Shown here: positions 7,349 to 37,100 of the stretch, one piece after another
How positions within the stretch are numbered: position 1 is the first letter of the stretch
Layout of the letters: each line of letters begins with the position of its first letter
Origin: Fistulifera solaris
Lineage: Eukaryota
DNA: 64,000 bases
Assembly: GCA_030295235.1 (NCBI GenBank)
Contig: AP026169.1
Span: 248,001-312,000 of the forward strand
Direction of reading: 5' to 3'
Notes under the pieces: generated by a model
The model's input: only the letters and a program-made list of their open reading frames with translations
What the model was told of the DNA's origin: nothing
The model's database searches: none
Made by a program: the position numbers and the translations under genes

Positions 7349-8873
7349 CTACGGATCCATTACAAAAATGTCGTGACCTTTCGCGTCGCCCAGATCCAGC
7401 GCCATGAGGGACTCGGACAAATCGGATAAAATAGAACCAGGCAAGGATGCTGGCAATGAATGAACCGAGTCGTTATCTCTCGGTAAGAAACTTTGATCGC
7501 ACGAATCAGACGTTCTAGTTCTGCTACGCCCCGAACCATAACTTCGACTGCGTTTCCCTTGTGACTTCGACAAGTTACGCCCGCGAGTTTCTGTTGTAGT
7601 TTCCTGAAAGTAACTCATAAGCAATGCTTCTTGAACACTATCCGGACTTCCTGGTACAATCGCATTTTGTAAATCACCTTCCGAGCCGTCAGGATTCGAT
7701 AGCCGAGGACCAAAAGAGATCAAATTCTTGACGTTCCACAGATGCTGCGGAGACCGCTCGGGAGTCTGGGACTCCTGCTGCTGCTCCTGATTCGACCGCC
7801 ACGGCGACTCAAAGGAAGTCGGAGGAACATTAGGATGAGACCAGTCGGAAAGGCTCGACAAGCCAGATATCAATGACGGTTCCGCGGGTTGCATCTCTGC
7901 TGGCCGCACATCATTCTGTGCAGGATGAAAACGACGTCCGAAAGCCTCCTCTGCAACATCATTCATGGCGGCCGCTGCTGCAGTCGATACGCCATTAGCC
8001 TGCAATGTTCCTGATCCCCTTCCTCGAAACATGTTGCGAATACTTTTCTTCAAGGATGAACTACTTTTGCTCGTTAGCGCTTCTTTTTTTACTGGAACGG
8101 GTGCAGGAAACGAGAAATCCGATCCACTCTTCGTTGTATACGTCAAGGGCTCGAACGGAACTGATGACGCCGCCTCGGCTGCTTCCATGCTTCGTGTTGT
8201 GTTGATCACCCGCTTGGCTCCGCGACTAGATATGGCAACGATACGTTGCGGTTGCACCGATGGGTAAGCCTTGGTTGGGCCTATTTCGGATTCGGGCTTT
8301 TTTTACTAGTGGGTTGTTCTCGCCTTTTAGGCATTCTTTTAAACTGCTTTCTTTGCTTTTAGCGTCGTCAACAGCCTTTTGCTTGGCAAGTATAGCATCT
8401 TCTCGTAACGCTTGCCCCACCTTTTTGATGGCCTTCTCATCTCCGATATCATACCAAGAACCATCCGGATCTTCTTTTAAAAATCTCCCTGGCGGATCCA
8501 TACTACGTATAAAATAGACTATTTCGGCAGCAATATGCGCCTTCTCTAGTTTCTTGGTAGAATGAGCGCGATAATCGTCTCTTCGTTTAGCGACAATTTC
8601 ACGAAATTGCACATTCCCGACATGCGCATTAATCCGACCTCCTCGGCCCGAAATGACATCGTTTTTGTTGAGTCTGGTGACAGGTCCCATGTAACGAGGC
8701 GGAATGACAGCCAGAGGCCTCCTATGATGATTCATGGATGGAGGCGGAGGGGGTACATGTCCACCAAAGACCACCGAAGCAAACGCGCCAGCCGTCAAAC
8801 GGCGCTGTCGTTTGCGGTCTTGATCCACATAGAGTGATTTGTGAGGAAAAAATGCATTCTGTGGGTAACTCAT
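7349..8873 (-). CDS. DUF6824-domain protein, paralog 1 (frameshift near 8260)
   Basis: NDVISGRGGRINAHVGNVQFR...PPGRFLK...W.DIGD..AIKKVGQALRE; the downstream ORF carries C-terminal motifs shared with paralogs 2 and 3. Confidence 0.85.
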
Positions 8874-9731: not shown

Positions 9732-11307
9732 ATGGTAAGTTAATGAAATCTCGAATGACTTGCTGTTAAAGGAGGACCGAAAAACGGAGAATGAATGCAG
9801 AGAGCTTACACTTTATCGGACGACTGAATTGCCGATGTGTATTTCTTTGTGCCAAGCCTGTTTCCGTTCTTGTTCCTCGTTCATTATACTCGTATTCATT
9901 CTTTTCTCTCACACACACCCATTATCTTGATTGACAGGACCGTCAACGCCAGAAACGACAGACGGCCAGTACGCTAGTGCAAAAGCTATGGGGAAAGACG
10001 AAAAGAAAACATCCACCGCCCAACCTCGACCCGAGGTTGTGATTCCTCCGAAAGGAATCGGTCCGGTATCGATGCAAGAAATAAATGAAAATGATGTCCT
10101 CGCTGGTAGGGGTGGACGAATCAATGCGCACATTGGGAATGTCCAATTCCGTGACATGGTGGCGGCACGGAAAAAGGAATATTTGGCCAAGTCGACCAGA
10201 AAGTTGGACAAGGCACACATTGCCGCCGAAGTGGTGCGGATCATCCGTAACATGACACCCCCGGGAAGATTTCTAAAAGCCGATCCAGACGGGTTGTGGT
10301 ACGATATCGGTGATCAGAAAGCCTTCAAAAAAGTAGGACAGGCGCTTCGAGAAGATGCACCGGATGTACGAGATTCTGATGAGGACGATGACATCCAAAA
10401 CAGTTATGAGCCGTTTGTCCAGTCAAGTAATACCATCACCCCGAAAGCCGTGATACAATTACCATCGGAGCGTCCGATGCAAGACGACGCGGCTTTTCAT
10501 ACACTTCCTTTGTTGACCGAAAGCACGCGACAACCGACTCCAACGACCACTGGATTCCGTTCGACACCGCCCATTGCGAAAGCCTTTGGTGACTTGCTTC
10601 CGTACGCGGCGGGGACATCAGGGGCGGCGGCCGCCGCGATGCAAGATGCTGATTTGGCCCGAAGACCCGACGAAGCGTTTGGACGTCCCTTTCATCATGC
10701 CGACAAGGACACGTCCTTCATTTCGGGGTTTTCAGCCAGTGACATGGTATCGGATATGTCGGCTTTGACGGACCCCATGTCGACACTTTCAGCTCGCATG
10801 GGGCATCAGCGGCCCGCTATCAGGCAATCGAACAATACGGCTACCTCGTTCTCGTCCACTTTCACAGGGACACGGCCATTTTTATCCGCATCGGTGGCGG
10901 GTTTGAATCGGAGTAATTCGTGGAGTAGTCTATTCGAAAACAATTCTTTGCGGGGTGGAGGGATCCGGGATAGTTCTCAATTGGCGGGAAGTGGTATTTC
11001 GGGAATGCAGTCGGTGCCTATGAGCGACGCGGACCAACGACGTGCCCAACGAAATGAGATACATCAATTTTATCAACAGCAGCAGTTTTCTTCTCAGCAG
11101 CATGAGTTGCAACAACAAATGGCCCCTCCACCACCCCAACCAATATCTTCCTACTATCAACAATCTTCACATCATGGCGCTTTACCGACCGACATGTCGG
11201 TCGCTAGTATGTCCATGAACTCGGTTGCTTCTATTCCAGCATCCATCATGTCGGGGTTGTCTGATACATTACAAGCGCTTGACTTGGCGGAGCCAAGAAT
11301 ACCATGA
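9732..11307 (+). CDS. DUF6824-domain protein, paralog 2 (probable ATG micro-exon, intron 9735-9937, indel near 10020)
   Basis: NDVLAGRGGRINAHIGNVQFR...KKVGQALREDAP; S/Q-rich tail. ATG|gtaagt...ttgacag|GAC gives MDRQRQKRQTAS, which resembles the paralog 1 N-terminus. Confidence 0.85.
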
Positions 11308-14519: not shown

Positions 14520-16723
14520 CTACTCTATCTTTTCCAAGGAGAACCAAAGAAAATTCCAACCAGCTTCCAGTGCACGGATCTCCAATGGAAAGGAACCGTC
14601 AGGTAAGCTGATTTCAGTTGAAATGGTTGTATATATTTGCCACCAGCCCGTAAGGGGAACAAGGATGGTTCCGTAGACACTTTGAGTTCTGCCATGGACG
14701 AGTTCTAGTGCCCCTGATCCCATGTGACTAGCCACACGCATCTCTACTTTGTAGTTTCCGCTACTGGGTAGGTCGACTTGATAGGTTACCCAATCACCGA
14801 CGTCGATATGACCCACATTGTCACCACCCTCGGAGGACGGCTCCAGTTCGATGCCCTTCATGCCGTCAAATGCACTGGCCGGAAAGAAGAATTTGGAGGT
14901 AGGAATACTTGCAGCTACTGATGTTTGATTGGACTCTGCAGTAAGGGGTTCAAGAGACAGCCAATTCAAATTCCATCCGCCAACGACGGCCACAACTCGC
15001 AAAGGGACCATGCCCCCGGTAAGTCAACGTATCCAACACTTACTCTCTCCCACGTGTGCCAGTCGCCCGTATTCGGCACCGAGTCGAGCTGTCCATAAAC
15101 CTCCTGCGTGTCTCTGTTCATCACCATGAGTGACCCTTCAGATAGTGGACTGGCAACGCCAAGATCGAGCCTATAGCGACCGGCAGAAGGAACAGTGATG
15201 TTGTAGTCAATGGTATCTCCTGTGTCGATAGAGCCCATAGTCTTCGTACCGTTAATTGGAGATTCGTTTACAACGCCATCGGAGCCGACGTTGTCGGTAG
15301 CAAGAATCATGGAATTGCCGGAAGTGAGATTCGCTGAAGTGGTATTTCCAGAAGGATCCCCGATTGAACTGTTTGAAGAAGCGAATGAGGCCTCATTGAG
15401 CTCGAGCGACATGAAGAGCAAGTTGAAGCTTCCTTCCATGACCATGATCTCTAAAGGAACGATACCGCTCTCGAGGTCGATGTCATCGACGCTCACCGTG
15501 GTCCAACTCTCCCATCCTCCGGTGGCCGGAATCGAATCAATCGATCCGTAAATTTCTTGAGTGTCACTATTCGTGACAAGGAATGATCCTGAGCCATTCA
15601 TGCTAGCAACCTCGAGATTGAGTCTGTAATTACCGGAAACAGGAACTTCCAAGTTGTACTTCATAAAGGCAGTATTGCTAATGTTACCAATAACCTGCGG
15701 TGCTTCCGTCTCAACGCCAGCAGAGCTATTCAAACTTGTGGCAGGAATCAGAATATTAACATCATCCGTTGTGTTGGTGGTATTGACAGAGGCAGCAGGA
15801 GTCGAGGCTCGTTCAATGATCAAATTCATCATGTTCCATCCGCCTTCGACCACAAGGATTTCGAATGGCAAAAGACCAGCTTCAAAAGTTACATTTTCCA
15901 CGCTTACAGTAGTCCATGTGTGCCATCCATCCGTTTGCGGAATTTCATTTACCCGCCCATAGATTTGTTGAGTTTCGCTGTTCTTCGCAACAAAGGAACC
16001 GTGTCCATACAAACTAGCAACTCGTACGCGAATCGCGTAAACTCCAGGGGAAGGGATATTAATTTCGTACTTAACATAATCACCGGAGCTGGACTCACCC
16101 AAGTTCCCATTGATAGGATCCACTGTTAATCCTTCCGCCCACGTGAACGAAGTTGCCGGAACCAAGAGTTTGTCAGGTGATGTATCGGTGCTAACAGCAG
16201 CGGTGTCTTCTGACAGTTGCTTGAGCGAGAACCAACCGAGGTTGAAACCTCCATTGACGATGAGAATTTCGAGTGTGTGAACTCCTGCAGAAATGTTGGC
16301 GTCACCGACTCGGACCGTGGCCCATTGCTCCCACGATCCAGTCGGTGGAAGTACATTGACTTCTCCGTAAATTTCAAAAGTTTCCGAATTGATCACAGAG
16401 AATGCACCCACATTATCTGTATTGGAGATGCGAGCTTGCAGCCGAAAGCGGCCTCCCACCTTGACGTCGACAGTGAATTTCAGTCGGTCCCCAGTGACGA
16501 TTTTCGCCAAGTTTTGCGTCCCTTCAGACGACTCATCGATTACAACGCCATCAGGTACGATAAAATCACCAGCATTGATCGTTATAGTTTCAAATCCTGG
16601 ACTTGATAATTCCGAATCTATTTGCCTCGTGTCATACCCGCTGCTCACCAAACCTCGCAATCGCCATGGAATAGCGGTAGCAACAGGAAGCAAAAGCGCT
16701 ATCGTCAGTAGTCGTTTTATCAT
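14520..16723 (-). CDS. Secreted protein with five tandem CBM6-like carbohydrate-binding modules (CBM-A)
   Basis: Signal peptide MIKRLLTIALLLPVATA; five repeats of SEG..N.G.I..GD...Y.V.V...G.Y....RVAS..G.G.F...P.TG.W..W.TV...GGWNL.W. One G missing in the G-run near 15013 joins the two ORFs. Confidence 0.85.
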
Positions 16724-17212
16724 TGTTTCGCTGTTTAAGAATGAAAAAATACATGAAAAGGGAAAACATGCAGTCGAGCGAAGGATCCCGAGTACCCGAT
16801 ACCTGAGAGCTGAGAGCCAACTGGTAGACTTATTGTTTTTGGACTTTCCGTGTTGCGGAAATTTAATGTGTGATGTGTGATATTTTTAGTGTCTCTATAA
16901 AGAATTCAAAAAATCGCTATACAGTGTTCAGTAAGTTCTTATTTCAAGAAGACATTTCGGGGTTTTTAATCGATTGTCAATGAGCAAGTGATATATCGCC
17001 CTTCTCATTTTCTGCTTCTCTCGTCATTAGACAAACGCAATGACTGGTCATTGGTAATTGATCGGGATTCTTTAGACTTCGATGGTGTTCTAGAGTGACT
17101 AGTGATTAGTGATGCTAATAGTACTAACCGAGGGAATTCCTCTACTATTGCTATCTGCTTACTGCAAATATTAAAGAGTTGTTGTATTTTTATTTCCTCT
17201 GAAAATTACAGT

Positions 17213-17284
17213 GCTGATGTGGCGCAGTGGTAACGCATTTGACTTGTAATCAAAAGATCCCCGGTTCAATCCCGGGCATCAGCT
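17213..17284 (+). tRNA. tRNA-Thr (TGT)
   Basis: Acceptor stem GCTGATG/CATCAGC, D arm GGCGCAGTGGTAACGC, anticodon arm TTTGA-CTTGTAA-TCAAA, T loop GGTTCAATCC. Confidence 0.96.
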
Positions 17285-17530
17285 TTGCCAAGTTTTCATT
17301 ATTATTTTTTCGTCGATAATCGATGCCGTCGTCTCTCTGTTTTTAATCCAACACAGAGTTTAAAATTATGCGATTGGTGTTTCAAAACGGTGACTATTAC
17401 TTTTCAGATACCGTATGCAACATAAACGAGGTTAGTTGAAGATGTGTTCCTTGATAAAGACATGTTAAATTTAGCTTATAGCGCGACGGCACGGAGCTAC
17501 ACAGGGGCGAGATGCTAGAGGTAGACTTAT

Positions 17531-18714
17531 TCACTCGAATGATGATTCTTCTCTTTGCTGAAATTCAACTTCCACTTGTTGTTTCGATGAGTCTTCTTGT
17601 AAGAGTTGTGTATTTTGCGTTACGTCTCTTCTGTCGTTCGCGACATGTTTCGTCTCGGATTCTTCGACAGCAACGACTTTCTCGTAAGCCTTCCCGCTCA
17701 GCCAATCGTCTAGATCTGCAACATTCTTTCCACTCGCGCCGTACTTGCCCACAACAGTGGAAAAAGTCATGGTGAAATCGCGGGGATCTTTGTAAACTCG
17801 TGCAGGATGATAGACCATCACAGATACCTTGTCCGTTTCACCAACGACACCATCAATCGGGTGCCACACTTTGTGAGCTCCGTGCATCGCAATCATTTGA
17901 ATGGGAGTAGTCTTGCGAGCCATACTGAATGCTCCTGTGAATACCTCGAGTAACCCATTCTCGGGTGTCGGATTGCACTGACCCTCCGGTAATATTCCCA
18001 AGTCGCACCCCGAATTCAAAGCGTTTTTACAGGCCACCAACATTGCCTTGAAGGACTGTTTGTCGTATTCATTCGGCGTGCCGTGCCCGTTGGCCGCCAT
18101 ACCGACAGGAATGAATCCAGCTTGCCGAAAGAATATCCGCGTCACCAAATGGTCTTCGAGCTGTTTCCAGTACATGATCGTCATGCGACGACCGTTCATT
18201 TTCAATTGGGAATGTGCCGCTAGCAGCAAAAACACGTCCAGCAAACTCGTGTGATTGCACACCCAAATGCGCGGTTCGTCAATAGTCGGTATAGCACCAT
18301 AGTGCTGCACCTGCAGTTTGCAGAAAGGAATCAATTTCATCAACCATCGACTACAAAAGGCCGCGGTCGGTACGGCCCAGTTGTGGAGCTGCTTCTCGTT
18401 GATTAGTTTTAGGCGATACAAAATTTGCTGAGGCAGAAGCGTTAGCGGCAAGGCGAGACACATGGCAACAATATACAGACACATTCCAATTTGCCTCAGT
18501 GTCTTCTTTACTTGCGGAAAAAGGCTGTTTTCGTAGCGGTTGCCCCATTGATTGCGGTTGAAGCGTTCAAAACGGCTTCATGTTTCTTGATGATTTGATC
18601 TTTGCTAACCGTTTGCTGTTGTCTGAAAGACACAGAGCGGAACTTGGGGATTGCAAATGCATTTACTGGGCAAGCAAAAGAGCACAAAAGAAAGAAGGAA
18701 TAATGGAACTTCAT
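17531..18714 (-). CDS. Plastid-targeted 1-acyl-sn-glycerol-3-phosphate acyltransferase (LPAAT, PlsC family)
   Basis: NHTSLLD (NHX4D) and ILPEG motifs; signal peptide MKFHYSFFLLCSFACPVNA-FAI. One T missing in the run near 18520 joins the presequence ORF to the main ORF. Confidence 0.85.
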
Positions 18715-18874
18715 GGTATCTTGTGACAATTCTATTGACGACGATCTTTGACGACAACACAATTCGCTGCCATGATTTCTTCACGTTCGTAAATAAGTTT
18801 TACGCTACGTCGAAGACCTGGTATTACTGAGAACCAGTCCGTCACCACGTGTTGAGCCGTTCTACTACGTTCTA

Positions 18875-18972
18875 CGTACCAGAAACGGCGTTAAAATTCT
18901 GCCTCGTCGTGGATGCTACGTAGAATCGAATCTTGTACTAGAGGCAGAATTTTAACGTCCTTTCCCGGTACG
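18875..18972. repeat. Short inverted-repeat element (mini-MITE-like)
   Basis: CGTTAAAATTCTGCCTC (18889-18905) and GAGGCAGAATTTTAACG (18941-18957) form a perfect 17-bp inverted repeat, which extends imperfectly outward to CGTACC/GGTACG. Confidence 0.7.
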
Positions 18973-19059
18973 GTACCAGTTCCGTACATAGAAATTGAAG
19001 GAAACTTAACTCACGATTATTATGAATCTAAATTATACAAGAACACGACTATGCCACAT

Positions 19060-20681
19060 CTATCTTTCTTTCAAGGTCAGAGAGATCCACTGCAAGTCCC
19101 ATCCTCCTTCATTCACAAGAACTTCTAGCGGTACCACTCTCCCGGCTTGTAAGCTGATATCGGCTACCCGGGCTGACCGAGCTGTGGCCCAATCGCCAGT
19201 GGAAGGCAGATCGGAGAGTCCTCCGTAAGACTGAAGAGTTTCCGCGTCGCGAAGAATAAACGATCCGTCGCCTGAGGGACTGCTAAGTCTCACCTCAATC
19301 GCATATGTACCGCTGACGGGAGGATTTACATCGAAGAGTAACCAGTCGCCAGCATCCAAATAGGCCATTGTTTGTGTTCGACCGTTGTCTCCTTCTAAGA
19401 TCACTCCCTGTGCATCTACCAAATCATCTCCTTGCAGTAAAATGACAGTAGGAGCCGCAGGAGCGCGTCCTCTTCCGTTGCTATTACTGCTTTGCGTGGA
19501 TCCTCCTCGAATTGGTTGCAGCAATTCGAAATGCAACCATCGTATATTAAATCCGCCCTCAGGAATCAAAACCGTTACAGCGTGCTGGCCCCTTGTCATT
19601 TCGACATTTGATGAAACGACGACTGTTTCCCATGTTTGCCACCACCCAGTTGAAGGCATATTCGTCAAATCACCTAACAACGCTTTGGAATCGCTATCGA
19701 TGACAAGAAATGACCCGTCTCCTGCGAGACTGGCGACGCGTACACTCATTTCGTAAACACCCGTGGAAGGAATATCTGCCATGAATTGCAAGCGGTCGCC
19801 ATTTCCAATGTAACTCAAGTTCTCTCCACCTTCACTACAAGGCTCGGTTACTATATCACCCGAGACTTCGAAATCCCTGCTTCAATCATTACAACACTGT
19901 GGAAGGCGCCATTGGCAACGGTTGTCCATGAAGCCTCACCTGTACCGTCCGTTGGAGTGTTACCTGCTGTTTCCCACCAGGTGGAGCCACCGGATGACCC
20001 CGTAGTTGTGGAGTCGGTAGTTGTGGCTCCATCATTGCCTTCATTCGTAGATGATTCTGTAGCGGTCGTAGCGGTCGGGTCGTCCGGATTGAAAAACGAC
20101 CCACTATTATCTGTCGTGGAAGTGTTCGTGCTTCCCACCGTAAACTGAGGAGAAACCTTCATTCCATTGTAATTCCAACCACCACTCAATGCCTTCAATG
20201 ATAATGTTAACGATCCTCTCGGTAATACAACGGATGCTCTGACTGATTCGTAAACATCCCAAGATCCTGTTGCCGGGAAATCTTTCATTTCTAAGTAAAT
20301 TTCCCCCGTAGCATAATTTAACAATTGAAAGCTTCCATCACCATCAGGAGACGCGATTTGAAATACGATGGTGTAGTATCCATCTCCGTGATATAGTGTC
20401 ACATCGTACGACATGCTATCGTCTGCGTCAATGAAAGCAATATTTTGTCCTCCCGCCGGATTGTTTTGCACTTCAATTCCCTTCATATCACAAAATTCGT
20501 CAGCTGCGATGATGGATTCCGCTTTGACGAAGCCGGCTTGACTCATAATACGGCCACAGCTGGATGTTGGCGTGGGCGGTTCTCCCCAGCCCGGTGCATC
20601 GGTCGGTGCCCCCGTCTCCTGTGCATGGACCGTTGAGTGAGTTACTATTGTAAGTATGAAGGAAAGGAGCGTTTGCCTCAT
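19060..20681 (-). CDS. Secreted protein with three CBM6-like modules and a Thr/Ser-rich linker (CBM-B)
   Basis: Signal peptide MRQTLLSFILTIVTHSTVHA; three CBM6-like repeats. Adding one G near 19876 gives AGDFEVSGDIVTEPCSEGGENLSYIGNGD and joins the two ORFs. Confidence 0.85.
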
Positions 20682-21321
20682 TATTTGATTGCAATGGGCA
20701 GTGCGTACTAGAAACGAGAGGCTTCAAGATGCAGCATGCTTCCATGTTCGACGAGAAGCGCGCAGGGAACAGCAACGACAACGACAAGCGTTTTTGTCGG
20801 TGGGACTTCTTGGTAACGGCTTTTCGCTTTGTCGAGTAAAACAGCAAAACGTAGCAATCTGTACGTAGATTATGTTCTGCGCACTGCGTGTCTTTGACAT
20901 AGGGTGTCACTGGTCACTGGCCCTGCTACAATATGCCATTGAACCATAAACATACTCATGTAGTAATGTAAAATTGTCAAAATCACAGAGACTCAATATG
21001 TACCTTCCGTTTTGAAGTATACACCAATCCCATTGTTGACACGCTGTGGGCCTTTTCGATACAACATGTGGTCGTGATCGTGGATCGTCCATAGCATCGT
21101 AGTACTCGGCGAATACGAACCTTAATGAACAATGAACGGGGCCAACGAATTTTTACCTAAAACCTTGTACTCCGTAAAAAGTAAGCATCACCAGCATGAA
21201 GCAATACATTTAGTTCGCAACGAAAAGTGAAATGCAAAGTGAAAGCTAGATTGTTGAAAGAACGACTTTTTCCTTTGGTAATTGATTGTACAGGAAGCTT
21301 CGAAAGGCGGATTGAACGCTC

Positions 21322-22643
21322 TTACAGCCTGAAAGTGAGCGAGAGCAGGTTCCAGCCCTCACCGGTCACCGTTAATTTGAGTCTTACAGGTCCTGCCGGC
21401 AGGGTTGCAGAAAAATCAACGCTCAATCCTTCAAACCAGCTACCAGAAGCCGGAAGCGTTGAGGCTGAACCCATGAGCTGACCCGTCGCGGCATTTTCTA
21501 ATCTGAAACCACCGGAACCATCGGGACTGGCGACTCTTACGCCAATATCATAAGCGCCTGCCACTGGCACGTCGACGGTATATTCCACAAAGTCACCAAT
21601 AGCTAGTTGACCGAGCAATTTTCCATCTACAACAGTGCCTTGGTTGTTACTGAAGTCTGCAGCGGAAACAATAAAGAAAGTTCCCTGAGGCTCAGGAGCC
21701 GTGCCATTCGCTTCATTAAAAGCCACAAACATCAAATTCCAGCCACCTTCCACAACTAGGAACTGCAATGGAACGGTACCTGCCGTGAGACCAACAGTTC
21801 CAAGATCCACCATAATCCAATCATCCCATCCCGCTGTTGCAGGAATGGAGGTCACCTCTGCCAAAATTTCCGAGTTGTCCCTGGTAGTGATGAAAAAACT
21901 TCCTAGAGCAGATGGGTTTGCGATGCGTATCCACATTTGGTAGGCGCCCGTCGTATTAACTGGCACATCAAAGGCAAGCTTGTCACCCGAAAAAAGGAAG
22001 GCGAGGTTCTGATCGACTTCATTCGCTCTATCGACAACCACACCCGAGGGGACTGTGAACTCTTCAGCACGAACCATAATGTCATAATCCTCATATGCCT
22101 GCACATAGCCGTAGCCCTCCAGTAACGTGAGCTTCATCCATTGCAGGTTCCAGCCGCTTTCAAGGGAAACTAGTTGAATGATGGAGTATCCTTCGTCGAG
22201 TGCAACTTTTCCGAGAGACACTGTCTCCCAAGTCTGCCAATCCGAAGTCGCGGGGATATCTTGGAAGACCCCATAGACTGTTCCAGTATCTTTATTCCTA
22301 AACTCAAAGGCACCGTCGCCATCGGGACTCGCGACTCGTACTTCTACGTCAAAATAGCCACCCGTCGACAATGCCACATCAAAGGCCACAAAATGCCCGG
22401 CCTGGAGCCAACCGATATTCTTGCCCCCCTCCGAGCTATCTTCGAGCAAGACACCATAATAGTCACAAAGCGCAGCGACGTCTATAAAAATCTCGGATCC
22501 TATTATGAGCTTCTCGGGGGTATTCCACTCGAGTAACATTGATTGGCATTGGGTTCTTCGCCGTTGACTCGCCAAGGATCATCAATTTGTTGGGCGACAG
22601 CTGCGTGAAACAGAGAGAGAAGGATGGATAAACACAATCTCAT
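21322..22643 (-). CDS. Secreted protein with three CBM6-like modules (CBM-C)
   Basis: Signal peptide MRLCLSILLSLFHAAVA; one C missing in the run near 22517; three CBM6-like repeats (SSEGGKNIGW...RVASPDG.G.F...GWNL). Confidence 0.85.
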
Positions 22644-23160: not shown

Positions 23161-23964
23161 CTACTGCTGTTGCTGCCGTGCAGCAAATTTGCCGCAGGAA
23201 ACCATTTTAGTACCTGCGCCTAATAAACCCATGCTTTGTTCTACTTTCAAGACACCCTCAAGTTTCTTGGGGTTGTTGTTTAGCTTTCCTTCAAAATACA
23301 GCCATCCTTCTGGGACCGTGTACGATGTCGATGTCTGCGTCGTTTTAGCTTCCTCGTTGGACCAAAACACATTCTGAATTGTGCCCGTCGTCTGAACTGT
23401 TCGCGTATAGCCAGTCACAAGCAAACGAAACCGAAAGTTCCCATCCCTTACAATCCAGTCTCCGTCTTCTGTTGAGCAGAATCCATCTTCATCTGGCCTT
23501 TCAACAAAACATTTGGCCGTATTCAAAAAATCCACAACGATGTTCTCGCAAGTTGGCTTTTCGGGAAGGTTTAATCCAATGTCCTTGTCACGCGTAGTGA
23601 TAGTAGTACGGGCGGCAAATAAATCATTTGATGGGTCTCTCGAGGGAATTCCGGCAAGATACAATTCCAGAGAGTATTTTCCTTCCAGTTGTGTCAATTG
23701 TTGTTGTTGTCGTCGCCATTTTTCTTGTGTTTCTGTTAGACGACCGGATCTAGTGGTCGTTGTGTCTGACAGGCCCGAATCTATACTACCCGTTCGTTTA
23801 TCAGCGCTCAGATCGGGAGAATTCTCGAATGCTTTTTTGAAAAGATCATTGAACAATCGCAAGGAAGTTGACGACGGCATTGAATTTTTAGTGCCAAGAA
23901 ACAGCGAGCTGAATGCAGAAGCAGGTACAAACAGAAAAAACAGAGAGAATATTTGCAGCTTCAT
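23161..23964 (-). CDS. Plastid-targeted hypothetical protein
   Basis: Intact 267-aa ORF with a signal peptide and ASA-F motif (FVPASAFSS). No recognised domain. Confidence 0.75.
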   Translation of the reverse strand: MKLQIFSLFFLFVPASAFSSLFLGTKNSMPSSTSLRLFNDLFKKAFENSPDLSADKRTGSIDSGLSDTTTTRSGRLTETQEKWRRQQQQLTQLEGKYSLELYLAGIPSRDPSNDLFAARTTITTRDKDIGLNLPEKPTCENIVVDFLNTAKCFVERPDEDGFCSTEDGDWIVRDGNFRFRLLVTGYTRTVQTTGTIQNVFWSNEEAKTTQTSTSYTVPEGWLYFEGKLNNNPKKLEGVLKVEQSMGLLGAGTKMVSCGKFAARQQQQ

Positions 23965-30642: not shown

Positions 30643-32807
<2,165 letters not shown>

Positions 32808-34147: not shown

Positions 34148-37100
34148 TTACCAAAGAGTATAGCCTTGAAAAATTTTAATACACCGGCAAATGAGATGAA
34201 CTATAGCTTTCTGATAGAAAATAAATAGCAGCCTCAACGGCTGCTTTTCCTCAATCCCCCCAAAACTATTTTCATCGAGCTGGATTTCTTTTTTTACTAG
34301 CAGGTTCAAATCTCTGCATGCGGACTGCTTTCGTAGAACTCCGTTAAATCCTGTTGGTGGTTGTACGACGGATGATAGGTCAAGTGGGTCGGGCATGTCA
34401 AAGTCACACAAGAGAAACACATTTCTTTGTTCATTGACGCGATTCCTGCCTTCCCAGTTACGAAAGTCGGCGATACACTTCGATGCTGTGACATCAGATA
34501 GGTCTTCATCAATAAGAACTGCATCCCAGTTGCGCATCTTCAATAATCGAATTGCATCTTGACCACTGTCTATGGAAACGACTTTCCAGCCTGTCGACTC
34601 TAATACCTTGACCGCGTCGGCCGTCACGGGCGATTCGCTTTCCATTGCAATAAGACATACAGGCAACGATGGGTTGGCTTTCTGTTCTACTTCCGTTTTG
34701 GATCTTTTACTTGTACGTGCGGTACTTTTGCTTTTTTCAAAAACGCGCTTGGCAGAGCATTTTACGTCATTCGTCGGCGAGGGGCGAGCTAGAGAAGCTG
34801 GATGGCTAGGGATGCTTTCCTTCTTTGTTTCCTTTCGGCGCTGCTCCTCCGGTTCCGTGGATAACCCGTCTAAAAGCCTGGTACTTGCTATGACTGCTTC
34901 ACAATCTTGCAATTCAATCAATGTTTTGATGCTGATCGGCTTCGACCGGAAATCATCCATTCCGGCGTCGATTCCCTGATCGCTGTCTTTCACACTCACA
35001 TGGGCACTTATACCAATTATTGGCTGTCGATGAGTTGGACGATTCTCCTTTTCCCACTCTCGATATTGCTTGACACAATCCAACCCATCCATAACGGGCA
35101 TCAGAAAGTCACAGAGAACCATATCAAACATTGTTTCTTTCATCGCTTCCAAACCTTCCAACCCGTTGACAGCCTGCCTCACTTCGTCGTATCCTAGCTT
35201 GCTAAGAGCACGCACAAGGCCTTTCCGAACAACAAGACTATCTTCGATGACCAATGATCGCTTCTGACGAGGGACGGACTCGATTTGTTCGGGAATAGCG
35301 TCGGCTGGTGTTGGAATTGGATCAATTGCGGATTGCCTTAGAGGAACCATATTCACGTTTTGAACGAATAAGGAAGGCAATCCATCTGCACGCGGCTTTG
35401 CCTGTGCATACTCCATATCGAATACGGCATTGGCATAGCTTTCAGCCGGCCGCTGGTATTGCATTTGAGTTCCAAACGAATGCCACGATGCGGCTCTTGG
35501 TGTTGCCACGCCGACTGCTGGAACCATTCCTCGTCGCGCGTAAAATGATGGTTCCGGATCTTGTGCTGAATACAAGCTGTTGTGCGATGAGTAGATGCTG
35601 CTGTTGCTTCCACTACGTAGCATCAATGGAACGAAAAAGTCATGATTTGAAGGGGTACGCTTGGTTCGCTTGCGAGATGCAAAGAAACTGCGACTGCTGT
35701 TGGATCCACTTTTCCGTAACCCAGCGTTCTTGAGGCGTACACTATGCACGTTCTGTTCGAGGTCAATGTCCGAAAAATCTTCGTTGAGTTGAAGCGAAAA
35801 GGAAAAAACGCTGCCGTTGTTCGGCTTGCCGTCATCTTCGGCAAGTGACATGCTTCGTGGTCTAAAGTTGTACTCTCCGTCCATTGACTTAATCAAACTC
35901 GCCACACTGCTTAAAGCTAGTAGCAAAGCGTGGTGCTCATCCTTGTCAGCGGGGCTATTGGTTGCTTGAAATAGATACGGATATAGTTCGACCGGTACAT
36001 CGGGCGCAGAGTCCTCACACTCAAACACAAGCAATGTCTTCTCGAAATCATCAGTACATTTTTTTAGGAAAATACGCAAATGCACGCTCCCCCGTTCTGT
36101 TCGTTCAGTGGCACTGGATAGCAAGTTTAGCGCAGCGCGAAATAACCTCAGATCATCGCAGCGGACTGTAGCTGGAACGGCAGGATCGAGAGAAATGACC
36201 AAGGGGACTGATTTCGGGATGGGTTCCATGATAAGCTTGAGACTCTTTACTAGATCCACTATGTTGGTGAGTGACGCAGCACCTTTCGTTTGTGAATCAG
36301 CGAGAGGACTGGCCAAATCTATTTTGTCATGTGATAGTGTTTGTTGACGCAAACTGTCAATGGCCGTTTCACAAATACGTATTGTCAAGTCGGAACAGGA
36401 AGTTGCCGTGGTCAAGAGTTCCATTTGGTGATCATTGAGTAAGGAACACACTTGCTCGTCGTCGGCTAATAGAGATAACGATAGCTGAACTCCTGACAAG
36501 GGGGTCATGAGATCATGAGCAGCGTATGCAATTAGTTTTGCAGGGTCTTCTTTATGAATGTGTTGCTGGAGTCGCCGTTGATCGACGACGGCTTGGATCG
36601 CAATAGCCGCTAGATCTGCCAGGTGTTCCATTTGTGAATCCGTCAACAAATGTTCCCGAGTGTTTGAATCCATAAGGCAAAAAGTGCCGAGCTGTATTAG
36701 TGAAAGAAAAGGACACGTATTAGGAAGAGGAAAGTCGAAACGCGCGTGATGTTTTTAGTACCTACTTTGTATCCTTCGGGTGATATCAGTGCCGCGGCTG
36801 CGTAAAATCCTACATCTGTTCTTCCGGAATACTCAGGATACTCGGCGACATTTTTTTAATTGTAGGGTGTTGAGAGTAGGGGACTGGACAAGATGCGTGC
36901 AGATGGGAAGCGCTGTCATGGGTCTAGCCTTATCGTGTCGTGCTAAAAAATACTGTTTGCCAAGATCAACCAACGATATCACAGCAGTAGACACGTCAAA
37001 CATTCGAGTCGCAAGTTGCACCATTCTTTCTAAATGCGGATGATGCTCGACATCCAGGTAGCTCTTCATCACTTTAAGGCGGTGCAGCTCATCCTTCATC

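Follow-up and report, generated by a model that had tools for sequence, protein, structure and literature searches.

Carbohydrate-binding modules of family 6 (CBM6) are typically appended to a glycoside hydrolase (GH) or lyase. CmCBM6-2 of the Cellvibrio mixtus endoglucanase/lichenase 5A (PDB 1UXZ and 1UY0) is a single module on a bacterial GH5 enzyme, and two further enzyme-appended bacterial modules, the CBM6 of the Zobellia galactanivorans laminarinase ZgLamC (5FUI) and BhCBM6 of Bacillus halodurans (1W9S), bind laminarin/beta-1,3-glucan, the type of glucan that diatoms store. Exported, enzyme-free lectins built of tandem carbohydrate-binding modules with folds unrelated to CBM6 include the peritrophins (CBM14), wheat germ agglutinin (four CBM18), Phytophthora CBEL (two CBM1) and the fungal LysM effectors (CBM50), which cross-link, coat or recognise polysaccharide by avidity. 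Here we analysed a stretch of 64,000 nucleotides of the diatom Fistulifera solaris (GCA_030295235.1, contig AP026169.1, positions 248,001 to 312,000; hereafter the window), in which three genes, A, B and C, each encode a hydrophobic leader followed by three or five CBM6 modules and no enzyme. We favour, with some reserve, the reading that their products are exported multivalent CBM6 arrays that bind or cross-link extracellular polysaccharide, with beta-glucan as the preferred candidate ligand.

The genes and the neighbour that lies among them are listed here by their positions in the window, with Pfam E-values for the open reading frames (ORFs).

14520..16723, minus strand: gene A, a leader and five CBM6 modules, 734 amino acids when read through; equals FisN_8Lh121 (ORFs; CBM_6, E 2.2e-46 and 4e-23)
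19060..20681, minus strand: gene B, a leader, one CBM6 module, a Thr/Ser-rich spacer of about 90 amino acids and two CBM6 modules; homeolog FisN_8Hh123 (E 4.4e-11 and 9e-21)
21322..22643, minus strand: gene C, a leader and three CBM6 modules with short linkers, 440 amino acids; equals FisN_8Lh124 (E 1.4e-39, three stretches)
17531..18484, minus strand: PlsC-type acyltransferase gene, unrelated to the CBM6 family (PF01553, E 4.5e-13)

All five ORF pieces of the three genes exceeded the curated cut-off (28.9 bits) of Pfam CBM_6 (PF03422). The two pieces of gene A scored 157.6 bits over four stretches and 82.5 bits over one, those of gene B 43.6 bits over one and 74.9 bits over two, and gene C 135.7 bits over three, 11 stretches in total (5+3+3). 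When a profile made from the 11 window modules was run on intact public proteins, it counted 5 modules in P0011, 3 in P0018 and 3 in P0008. The related families CBM_35 and CBM_35_2 also passed their cut-offs in genes A to C, with weaker scores than CBM_6, and the Pfam scan gave neither a catalytic family nor any further family above cut-off in the three genes. ORFs, Pfam and module profile therefore agree on the three same-strand genes with 5, 3 and 3 modules that a preliminary description of this DNA had proposed. Its picture of the cluster has to be corrected in one respect: the acyltransferase gene separates genes A and B, and the three CBM6 genes are thus non-contiguous. Contigs over gene C ran co-linear with the window and no joints were seen. 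All 11 modules are acidic (isoelectric point 4.05-4.6, net charge -5 to -14), and gene A carries 14 N-X-S/T sequons.

The assignment to CBM6, likewise put forward in the preliminary description, was borne out by fold as well as by Pfam. By sequence, module A5 matched the PDB entries 8zvk (2.3e-45), 1uxz (1.9e-24), 5fui (1.3e-22) and 1w9s (5.8e-14); 8zvk is named 'AaBgIC' and carries two CBM6 modules, and no paper on 'AaBglC' was found in the literature searched. A5 was the one module folded singly, and its AlphaFold2 model, made with the 11-module alignment, reached a predicted local distance difference test score (pLDDT) of 95 and a predicted template modelling score (pTM) of 0.86. In a Foldseek search with this model all top matches were CBM6, led by 1uxz (TM-score 0.93, root-mean-square deviation (rmsd) 1.3 Å, 39% identity) and followed by 5fui (0.91), 1gmm (0.89) and 1w9s (0.89). 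Gene C was folded at full length with 12 sequences, which gave three beta-sandwich modules (mean pLDDT 80.5, pTM 0.58) behind a leader modelled as a lone helix; residues 10-33 are disordered, and confidence is low in the leader and in the first linker (residues 179-183). Single modules of this model matched 5fui (TMt 0.90) and 1uy0 (0.85). With the three-module model as query, Foldseek found its module arrangement in no solved structure, the multi-domain matches having an rmsd of 16-28 Å. The model fits beads on a string.

According to the passages of PMC10956234 that deal with them, CBM6 has two sugar sites: cleft A, in the variable loops, clamps a sugar between two aromatics, and cleft B, on the concave face, needs another aromatic. 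The same passages place the variable-loop clamp of ZgLamC at Y291 and W348 and its concave-face aromatic at W297, and the roles of the CmCBM6-2 positions Y33, W92 and W39 were drawn from PMC10956234 and from the corresponding part of PMC7974029. CmCBM6-2 shares family and fold with the diatom modules and its key positions can be traced in them; we mapped the site positions through the 11-module alignment. The modules are as follows, their types being those of the module tree described below.

16214..16594, minus strand: module A1, type 2; clamp K, concave-face R, both canonical aromatics replaced
15806..16171, minus strand: module A2, type 3; clamp aromatic lost (E), concave-face Y kept
15395..15760, minus strand: module A3, type 3; clamp aromatic lost (N), concave-face F kept
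14943..15316, minus strand: module A4, type 3; clamp S, concave-face T; contains the frame break of gene A
14523..14894, minus strand: module A5; clamp His, concave-face Trp; closest to bacterial beta-glucan-binding CBM6
20145..20522, minus strand: module B1; clamp F, concave-face S; branches near the base of the enzyme-free diatom modules
19516..19875, minus strand: module B2, type 2; clamp Y, concave-face R; first strand upstream of the frame break
19066..19449, minus strand: module B3; both aromatics kept (Y, W), conserved Asn replaced by Asp
22117..22512, minus strand: module C1, type 1; both canonical aromatics (W, F) and Asn kept
21709..22086, minus strand: module C2, type 2; clamp F, concave-face K
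21325..21681, minus strand: module C3, type 3; clamp aromatic lost (Q), concave-face F kept

The pocket Trp (W92 position) was present in all 11 window modules, and the conserved Asn (N121 position of CmCBM6-2), which we take to belong to the variable-loop site, in 10, the exception being the Asp of B3. The second clamp aromatic (Y33 position) was kept in five modules (W in C1, F in C2 and B1, Y in B2 and B3); elsewhere this position held His in A5, K in A1, E in A2, N in A3, S in A4 and Q in C3. Six modules kept the concave-face aromatic (W39 position), namely A2, A3, A5, B3, C1 and C3, and the remaining residues there were R (A1, B2), T (A4), S (B1) and K (C2). In the bacterial comparison set of 530 modules the aromatic or Asn was kept at the Trp position by 504, at the Asn position by 477, at the clamp by 444 and at the concave face by 505. 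With the full aromatic clamp in only five of 11 modules, not every window module need bind canonically. The pattern tracked module type: type 1 has both sites, type 2 the pocket without the concave-face aromatic, and type 3 the reverse. Most site positions recurred in orthologs of 48-81% identity, the differences being H/N at the clamp of A5, Y/I at the concave face of A2 and D/N at the Asn position of B3; along gene A the clamp residues read K, E, N, S, H and in its ortholog R, E, N, S, N. This recurrence indicates that the losses are old and mostly stable and do not reflect recent decay. The uneven retention of the two canonical sugar sites among the modules is new here.

Leaders were judged by Kyte-Doolittle windows of 19 residues and by eye.

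16673..16723, minus strand: signal-peptide-like N-terminus of gene A, MIKRLLTIALLLPVATA then IPW; Kyte-Doolittle 1.63, the highest 19-mer of the protein
20622..20681, minus strand: signal-peptide-like N-terminus of gene B, MRQTLLSFILTIVTHSTVHA then QE; read from sequence
22593..22643, minus strand: signal-peptide-like N-terminus of gene C, MRLCLSILLSLFHAAVA then QQ; Kyte-Doolittle 1.45 at residues 2-21

In genes A and C the N-terminus held the sole strongly hydrophobic 19-residue windows, with no second segment above 1.4. The leader of gene B is weaker (hydropathy about 0.77 by hand sum, with a hydrophobic core of 9 residues), and its orthologs P0019 and P0020 likewise begin with hydrophobic leaders. 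A hydrophobic C-terminus was sought by hydropathy in A, B and C and none was found. The enzyme-free, signal-peptide-first architecture of the preliminary description, with neither a transmembrane segment nor a tail resembling a glycosylphosphatidylinositol signal, is thus in line with the Pfam scan, with the restriction of hydrophobic windows to the N-terminus and with non-hydrophobic C-termini. Putative cleavage motifs with small residues at -1/-3 (ATA, VHA and AVA) were read by eye, and no aromatic residue follows at +1. Together these features suggest secretion by way of a cleavable signal peptide. A conserved RXL wall-protein processing motif after the leaders was considered and rejected: an RGL was seen by eye in gene A, and the motif is absent from the gene A ortholog P0014 and from genes B and C.

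A HMMER search with the module profile returned 13,038 proteins at E <= 0.001. Its best matches included further F. solaris paralogs from loci elsewhere in the genome, FisN_5Hh050/5Lh050 with three modules and FisN_8Hh004/8Lh004 with three modules and a Pro-rich tail, and a 4-module protein listed with them. In FisN_8Hh004/8Lh004 (P0060/P0174) the module order is permuted (type 2, type 3, type 1), and the C-terminal tail of about 150 residues is rich in Pro, Val and Gln with PVQAP-like repeats. Modules fused to GH5 occurred in Epithemia clementina KAL7561068.1 (P0143) and in two other diatom-labelled proteins. The best PDB match of the Epithemia GH5 domain (Pfam Cellulase E 4.3e-28) is named beta-xylosidase (1.7e-29), the next being a glucan 1,3-beta-glucosidase (1.4e-13) and then exo-1,3-beta-glucanases.

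We built a midpoint-rooted FastTree of 582 modules, 52 from 16 diatom-labelled proteins and 530 from other matches, from which near-duplicate homeologs and orthologs (P0001-3, 9, 10, 12, 13, 19, 60, 170-173 and 175-177) and modules matching fewer than 96 profile positions had been left out. Fifty of the 52 diatom-labelled modules formed one clade (support 0.81) from which all 530 others were absent; the remaining two were modules 1 and 2 of a GH5 fragment. GH5-linked modules lay at the base of the diatom clade (0.82), the enzyme-free modules formed a clade (0.91), and the nearest outside rows were bacterial (Neobacillus novalis, Pelagicoccus sp.). A bacterial origin, which the preliminary description had considered possible, is accordingly plausible on this midpoint-rooted tree, the diatom modules forming one clade among bacterial modules with named sisters that are bacterial; the transfer would have run from bacteria to diatom. 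In a metagenome scan for DNA of relatives one locus was found (L001, 40% identity), with dense same-strand ORFs in a bacterial layout, and the ESM Atlas gave only generic bacterial CBM6 clusters, at a recognition of 1835, below the guide value of 2300.

Within the clade the modules clustered by type across genes, not by gene: type 1 comprised C1, 5h050-1 and 8h004-3 (support 0.95), type 2 comprised C2, 5h050-2, 8h004-1, A1 and B2 (0.88-0.93), and type 3 comprised C3, 5h050-3, 8h004-2 and A2-A4 (0.84). Modules of the clustered genes are 20-45% identical to one another, whereas C1 and 5h050-1 share 52%, and FisN_5h050, the nearest paralog of gene C, sits on another chromosome. These values identify the clustered genes as old paralogs that did not arise by recent expansion on the spot. 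The idea that the three genes were duplicated recently in tandem was dropped in view of the tree grouping and of the 20-45% module identity, and the term locally expanded, used in the preliminary description, is not supported; each gene also has separate orthologs in both subgenomes and in other diatoms. The single diatom module clade among bacterial ones, with GH5-linked modules basal, and the standing of the genes as old paralogs are likewise new here.

The genes themselves are already public. Gene A is identical (100%) to P0011, 'hypothetical protein FisN_8Lh121 [Fistulifera solaris]' of 734 residues, and gene C corresponds to P0008, FisN_8Lh124 (GAX12026.1). Copies from the second subgenome are FisN_8Hh121 (89% to A), FisN_8Hh123 (91% to B) and FisN_8Hh124, the homeologs being 89-96% identical overall, and more distant orthologs were found at 62% for A, at 57% and 48% for B and at 81-84% for C. 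Each of the three genes is thus separately conserved, and the presence of homeologs in both subgenomes together with distant orthologs of each gene indicates that the cluster predates the hybridisation that made the allodiploid genome. The orthologs P0014 (A-type) and P0020 (B-type) come from one source whose longest contig, 4095 bases, barely fits both genes, which may be direct neighbours there without an acyltransferase gene. The records are named 'hypothetical protein' at NCBI and bear the automatic UniRef label 'CBM6 domain-containing protein'; the word undescribed, used in the preliminary description, therefore does not hold for the genes, and no study of them was found in the literature searched. 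Among the papers listed, judged for the most part by title and abstract, none dealt with diatom-encoded CBM6 proteins. No paper was found for the six FisN gene ids, none of the 11 supplementary files of PMC5935921 contains them, and PMC4316629 matched only CBM63-type words.

Each gene shifts frame once, at a homopolymer where the window is one base short.

15013..15017, run on the plus strand: C5, frame break of gene A, one base short (contigs, public protein P0011)
19875..19877, run on the plus strand: C3, frame break of gene B, one base short (one X1 contig)
22516..22520, run on the plus strand: G5, frame break of gene C before module 1, one base short (X1-X3 contigs, public protein P0008)

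Here X1 is an independent sequencing run of the same organism, whose contigs were aligned to the window. At the C5 run of gene A one base is inserted by each of two X1 contigs, both at a depth of 16 out of 32; one adds C and the other T, which fits the P-E-G of the homeolog. P0011 reads through this break as LPGGMVPL, and both window pieces of gene A match P0011 exactly. At the break of gene C a G is inserted at 22515 at depth 29.9/29.9 in X1, 30.5/30.5 in X2 and 8.74/8.74 in X3, and the X4 contig stops there; P0008 reads GIPPEKLII, and the window translation equals P0008 exactly on both sides. The break of gene B is bridged by one X1 contig that inserts C at 19874 at depth 26.9/60.7 and that mismatches the window at 19908 and 19917, so it probably stems from the other homeolog; the homeolog P0018, 91% identical to gene B, reads through the position. 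The same one-base deficit occurs at two non-coding sites, 17283 (T3, 17284-17286) and 18517 (A5, 18518-22), at which contigs otherwise match perfectly. Thus, at all five indels that separate same-organism contigs from the window, the window has one base too few in a homopolymer, two of the five sites being non-coding; this is the signature of consensus error and not of decay, and besides the single break genes A to C contain no stop codons or further damage. Genes A and C are intact. The window copy of gene B is probably intact, because the error is of the same type and its homeolog and orthologs read through. The proposal, made in the preliminary description, that the breaks are homopolymer artefacts therefore stands for genes A and C, on the contigs and identical public proteins, while for gene B it is the homeolog that is seen to be intact. 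The available passages of the preprint on a nanopore F. solaris assembly, which was not used for the window, mention neither homopolymers nor frameshifts. Contigs of runs X2-X4, which are only guessed to be RNA, cover gene C co-linearly over 21280-22590 in all three runs; an X2 contig covers part of gene B (19011-19683), an X3 contig part of the acyltransferase gene (17685-17847), and no X2-X4 contig lies on gene A. They were used for the indel at 22515 only, and no conclusion on expression was drawn from them. Other genes of the window likewise appear as adjacent or overlapping ORF pairs (43757-44557/44335-45390, 59515-60297/60050-61435 and 51857-52528/52570-53382), and the GAPDH ORF at 30643-31527 lacks its N-terminal part; one-base breaks or introns may explain these.

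The mechanism we propose is as follows. The three genes would be intron-free nuclear genes whose products enter the secretory pathway through a cleavable signal peptide, leaving a mature protein that is a string of three to five acidic CBM6 beta-sandwiches, joined by linkers that are short or rich in Ser, Thr and Asn and could be glycosylated, with neither enzyme nor anchor. Each module would offer up to two sugar sites, a loop pocket for a sugar or chain end and a concave cleft along the chain; since the modules keep these sites unevenly, one protein carries several non-identical predicted binding sites. Most likely, such arrays would bind a neutral polysaccharide by avidity and cross-link it beyond the plasma membrane, within the mucilage or the organic layer of the wall. 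A beta-glucan such as beta-1,3-glucan is the favoured ligand because beta-glucans are what the nearest characterised modules bind, because the GH5 domains joined to the modules of diatom relatives resemble glucanases, and because of the acidity of the modules; we treat it as a lead and not as a result. Charge-based binding to anionic mucilage was dropped, as all modules are acidic. The modules would descend from one bacterial-type CBM6, which probably arrived joined to a GH5 glucanase and lost this enzyme partner later.

Several points weigh against this reading. CBM6 specificity varies widely (xylan, agarose, beta-glucans), and the best match of the Epithemia GH5 is a beta-xylosidase. The second clamp aromatic is missing from six of the 11 modules, and A1 and A4 have neither aromatic, whereas 444 and 505 of the 530 bacterial modules keep the respective positions, so sugar binding may be absent from some window modules or replaced by binding to another partner. 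We found no report of carbohydrate binding, secretion or localisation for any diatom CBM6 protein. Diatom labels beyond F. solaris and Epithemia were our judgement from likeness and linker style, and the tree, besides its midpoint root, took as bacterial rows the 150 best matches to the diatom profile, with no deliberate sampling of other eukaryotes. For gene B, the only contig with the extra base resembles the other homeolog, and the protein search did not return a full-length FisN 8Lh123, the window copy. Finally, the signal peptide fits a vacuolar destination equally well.

In that vacuolar case the arrays would bind, organise or gate enzyme access to the soluble store of beta-1,3/1,6-glucan, the chrysolaminarin. 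The nearest characterised CBM6 (5fui, 1w9s and 1uxz) bind laminarin-type glucans, the GH5 domains fused to the diatom relatives resemble exo-1,3-beta-glucanases, and diatoms keep their beta-1,3-glucan in the vacuole (established knowledge, also stated in bioRxiv 10.1101/2023.09.07.556657). However, no vacuolar sorting signal was recognised by eye, no dedicated search having been made, the paralogs FisN_8h004 bear long Pro-rich tails, and extracellular proteins are the more typical bearers of mucin-like Thr/Ser spacers and numerous N-glycosylation sequons. Because of these spacers and sequons we favour wall or mucilage over the chrysolaminarin vacuole, which we consider an unlikely destination. 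The arrays could also act at the interface between diatom and bacteria, either by coating the cell's own surface glycans and blocking CBM6-bearing glycanases of bacteria, much as fungal Avr4 and LysM effectors shield chitin, or by binding bacterial exopolysaccharides as recognition or agglutination lectins. Marine bacteria append modules of the same type to laminarinases and glucanases, as in P0015, P0064 and P0121, where GH16 or GH5 is combined with CBM6 and a tail of the type IX secretion system, and an expanded family with diversified binding-site residues is what changing targets would lead one to expect. Yet nothing points to induction by bacteria, the window shows no connection of these genes with defence genes, and rapid evolution is not apparent, as orthologs of 48-81% identity have stable site residues; we rate such a role as quite unlikely.

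If CBM6 were only an ancestry, the modules could be sugar-independent scaffolds, acidic beta-sandwich blocks of the organic wall matrix that contact proteins, calcium or silica. The six modules without the second clamp aromatic and the five without the concave-face aromatic, A1 and A4 being in both groups, agree with this, as does the strong acidity of all modules (-5 to -14), a property common among diatom wall proteins. Selective retention across orthologs of 48-81% identity points instead to sugar binding: every one of the 11 modules has the pocket Trp, 10 have the Asn, and nine keep at least one canonical aromatic position besides the Trp, which makes the scaffold very unlikely in our view. 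Real frame breaks, with a decay to pseudogenes in this subgenome that affects the window copy of gene B if not the entire cluster, would account for one frameshift per gene in the window, for an extra base at 19874 seen at only 26.9/60.7 depth in a contig that differs from the window nearby, and for the failure to retrieve a full-length protein of this gene B copy. Against decay, same-homeolog contigs add the base in A and C, the public proteins are identical on both sides of those breaks, all five indels are homopolymer deficits, two of them non-coding, and the single break comes without stop codons or other damage; we regard decay as highly improbable. An extension of the preferred reading, that of exported glycan-binding arrays, is that the diatom captured the module with which marine bacteria direct their glucanases to algal glycans, dropped the enzyme and expanded exported arrays with sites split into pocket-only modules for chain ends and cleft-only modules for chain interiors. 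Such arrays could gel the cell's own beta-glucan mucilage or wall, or occupy as a shield the sites that bacterial CBM6 enzymes need; this scenario as a whole we hold to be rather improbable.

Some other features of the window were observed in passing. Just downstream of gene B, at 18882-18964, lies an inverted repeat with 24-nt arms that are 92% complementary and 35 nt apart. X1 depth there was 282-1464 as compared with about 14-47 elsewhere, and many loose contig ends fall at 18882-18965; the element, present in a single copy in the window, looks like a high-copy repeat of the genome resembling a miniature inverted-repeat transposable element. Adjoining gene C, 23161-23964 on the minus strand is an ORF of 267 residues with no Pfam family and a leader containing PASAFSS, which we take to resemble the plastid-targeting ASAF motif of diatoms. 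Two divergent genes at 8226-8873 (minus strand) and 9988-11307 (plus strand) each carry a DUF6824 domain (E 1e-28), and an ORF of 841 residues at 34148-36673 (minus strand) seems, from its HisKA and response-regulator receiver domains, to encode a hybrid histidine kinase.

Little is known on how diatoms organise the polysaccharide of wall, mucilage and adhesive, and in the literature searched we found no description of a lectin-like cross-linker of these matrices. The CBM6 family and the public gene records with their automatic label were known before; their function is what we infer here. If the proposal is right, the CBM6 arrays would be concrete candidates for matrix assembly, for the handling of beta-1,3-glucan and for interactions with glycan-feeding bacteria. 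Their family has GH5-linked relatives, occurs in further raphid diatoms and is expanded in F. solaris, a genetically tractable oil producer for which PMC13276009 describes a CRISPR RNP method. The arrays would also show clearly how a eukaryote can put a bacterial binding module to use once it is parted from its enzyme, and the modules could be used as they are to probe algal glycans.

Compared with the systems described above, the window genes differ from the FisN records, which are the same proteins under automatic labels, by the one-base homopolymer deficits of the window copies. The single GH5-borne module CmCBM6-2 contrasts with diatom proteins of three to five modules and no enzyme, among whose 11 modules only C1 and B3 keep both of its aromatic positions. 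The CBM6 of ZgLamC (E 1.3e-22, TM-score 0.91) and BhCBM6 (E 5.8e-14, TM-score 0.89) are near A5 and, unlike the diatom arrays, are appended to enzymes. Epithemia clementina KAL7561068.1 has three CBM6 modules at the base of the same diatom clade and carries a GH5, whereas the window genes carry none. Bacteria, too, have enzyme-free poly-CBM6 proteins: in P0021, P0023, P0057 and P0084 three or four modules stand in tandem and Pfam gave no catalytic domain. None of their modules groups within the diatom clade. P0057 seems to be a fragment, as modules make up 0.99 of its length, and P0021 and P0084 share a cytoplasmic-looking N-terminal motif in place of a simple leader. That motif, RLGDILI.KG.I...QL, is common to the bacterial proteins P0021, P0084 and P0092 (three or four CBM6), with no Pfam family in P0021 and P0084 at E 1e-5, and presumably resembles the N-terminal domain of ATPases of type II secretion or of the mannose-sensitive haemagglutinin (MSHA) system. 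Of the exported tandem-module lectins named at the outset, none, to our knowledge, uses CBM6 or comes from diatoms. What appears to set the F. solaris arrays apart is their diatom host, a probable single bacterial-type origin followed by release from GH5, the expanded family and the partitioning of two sites among module types.

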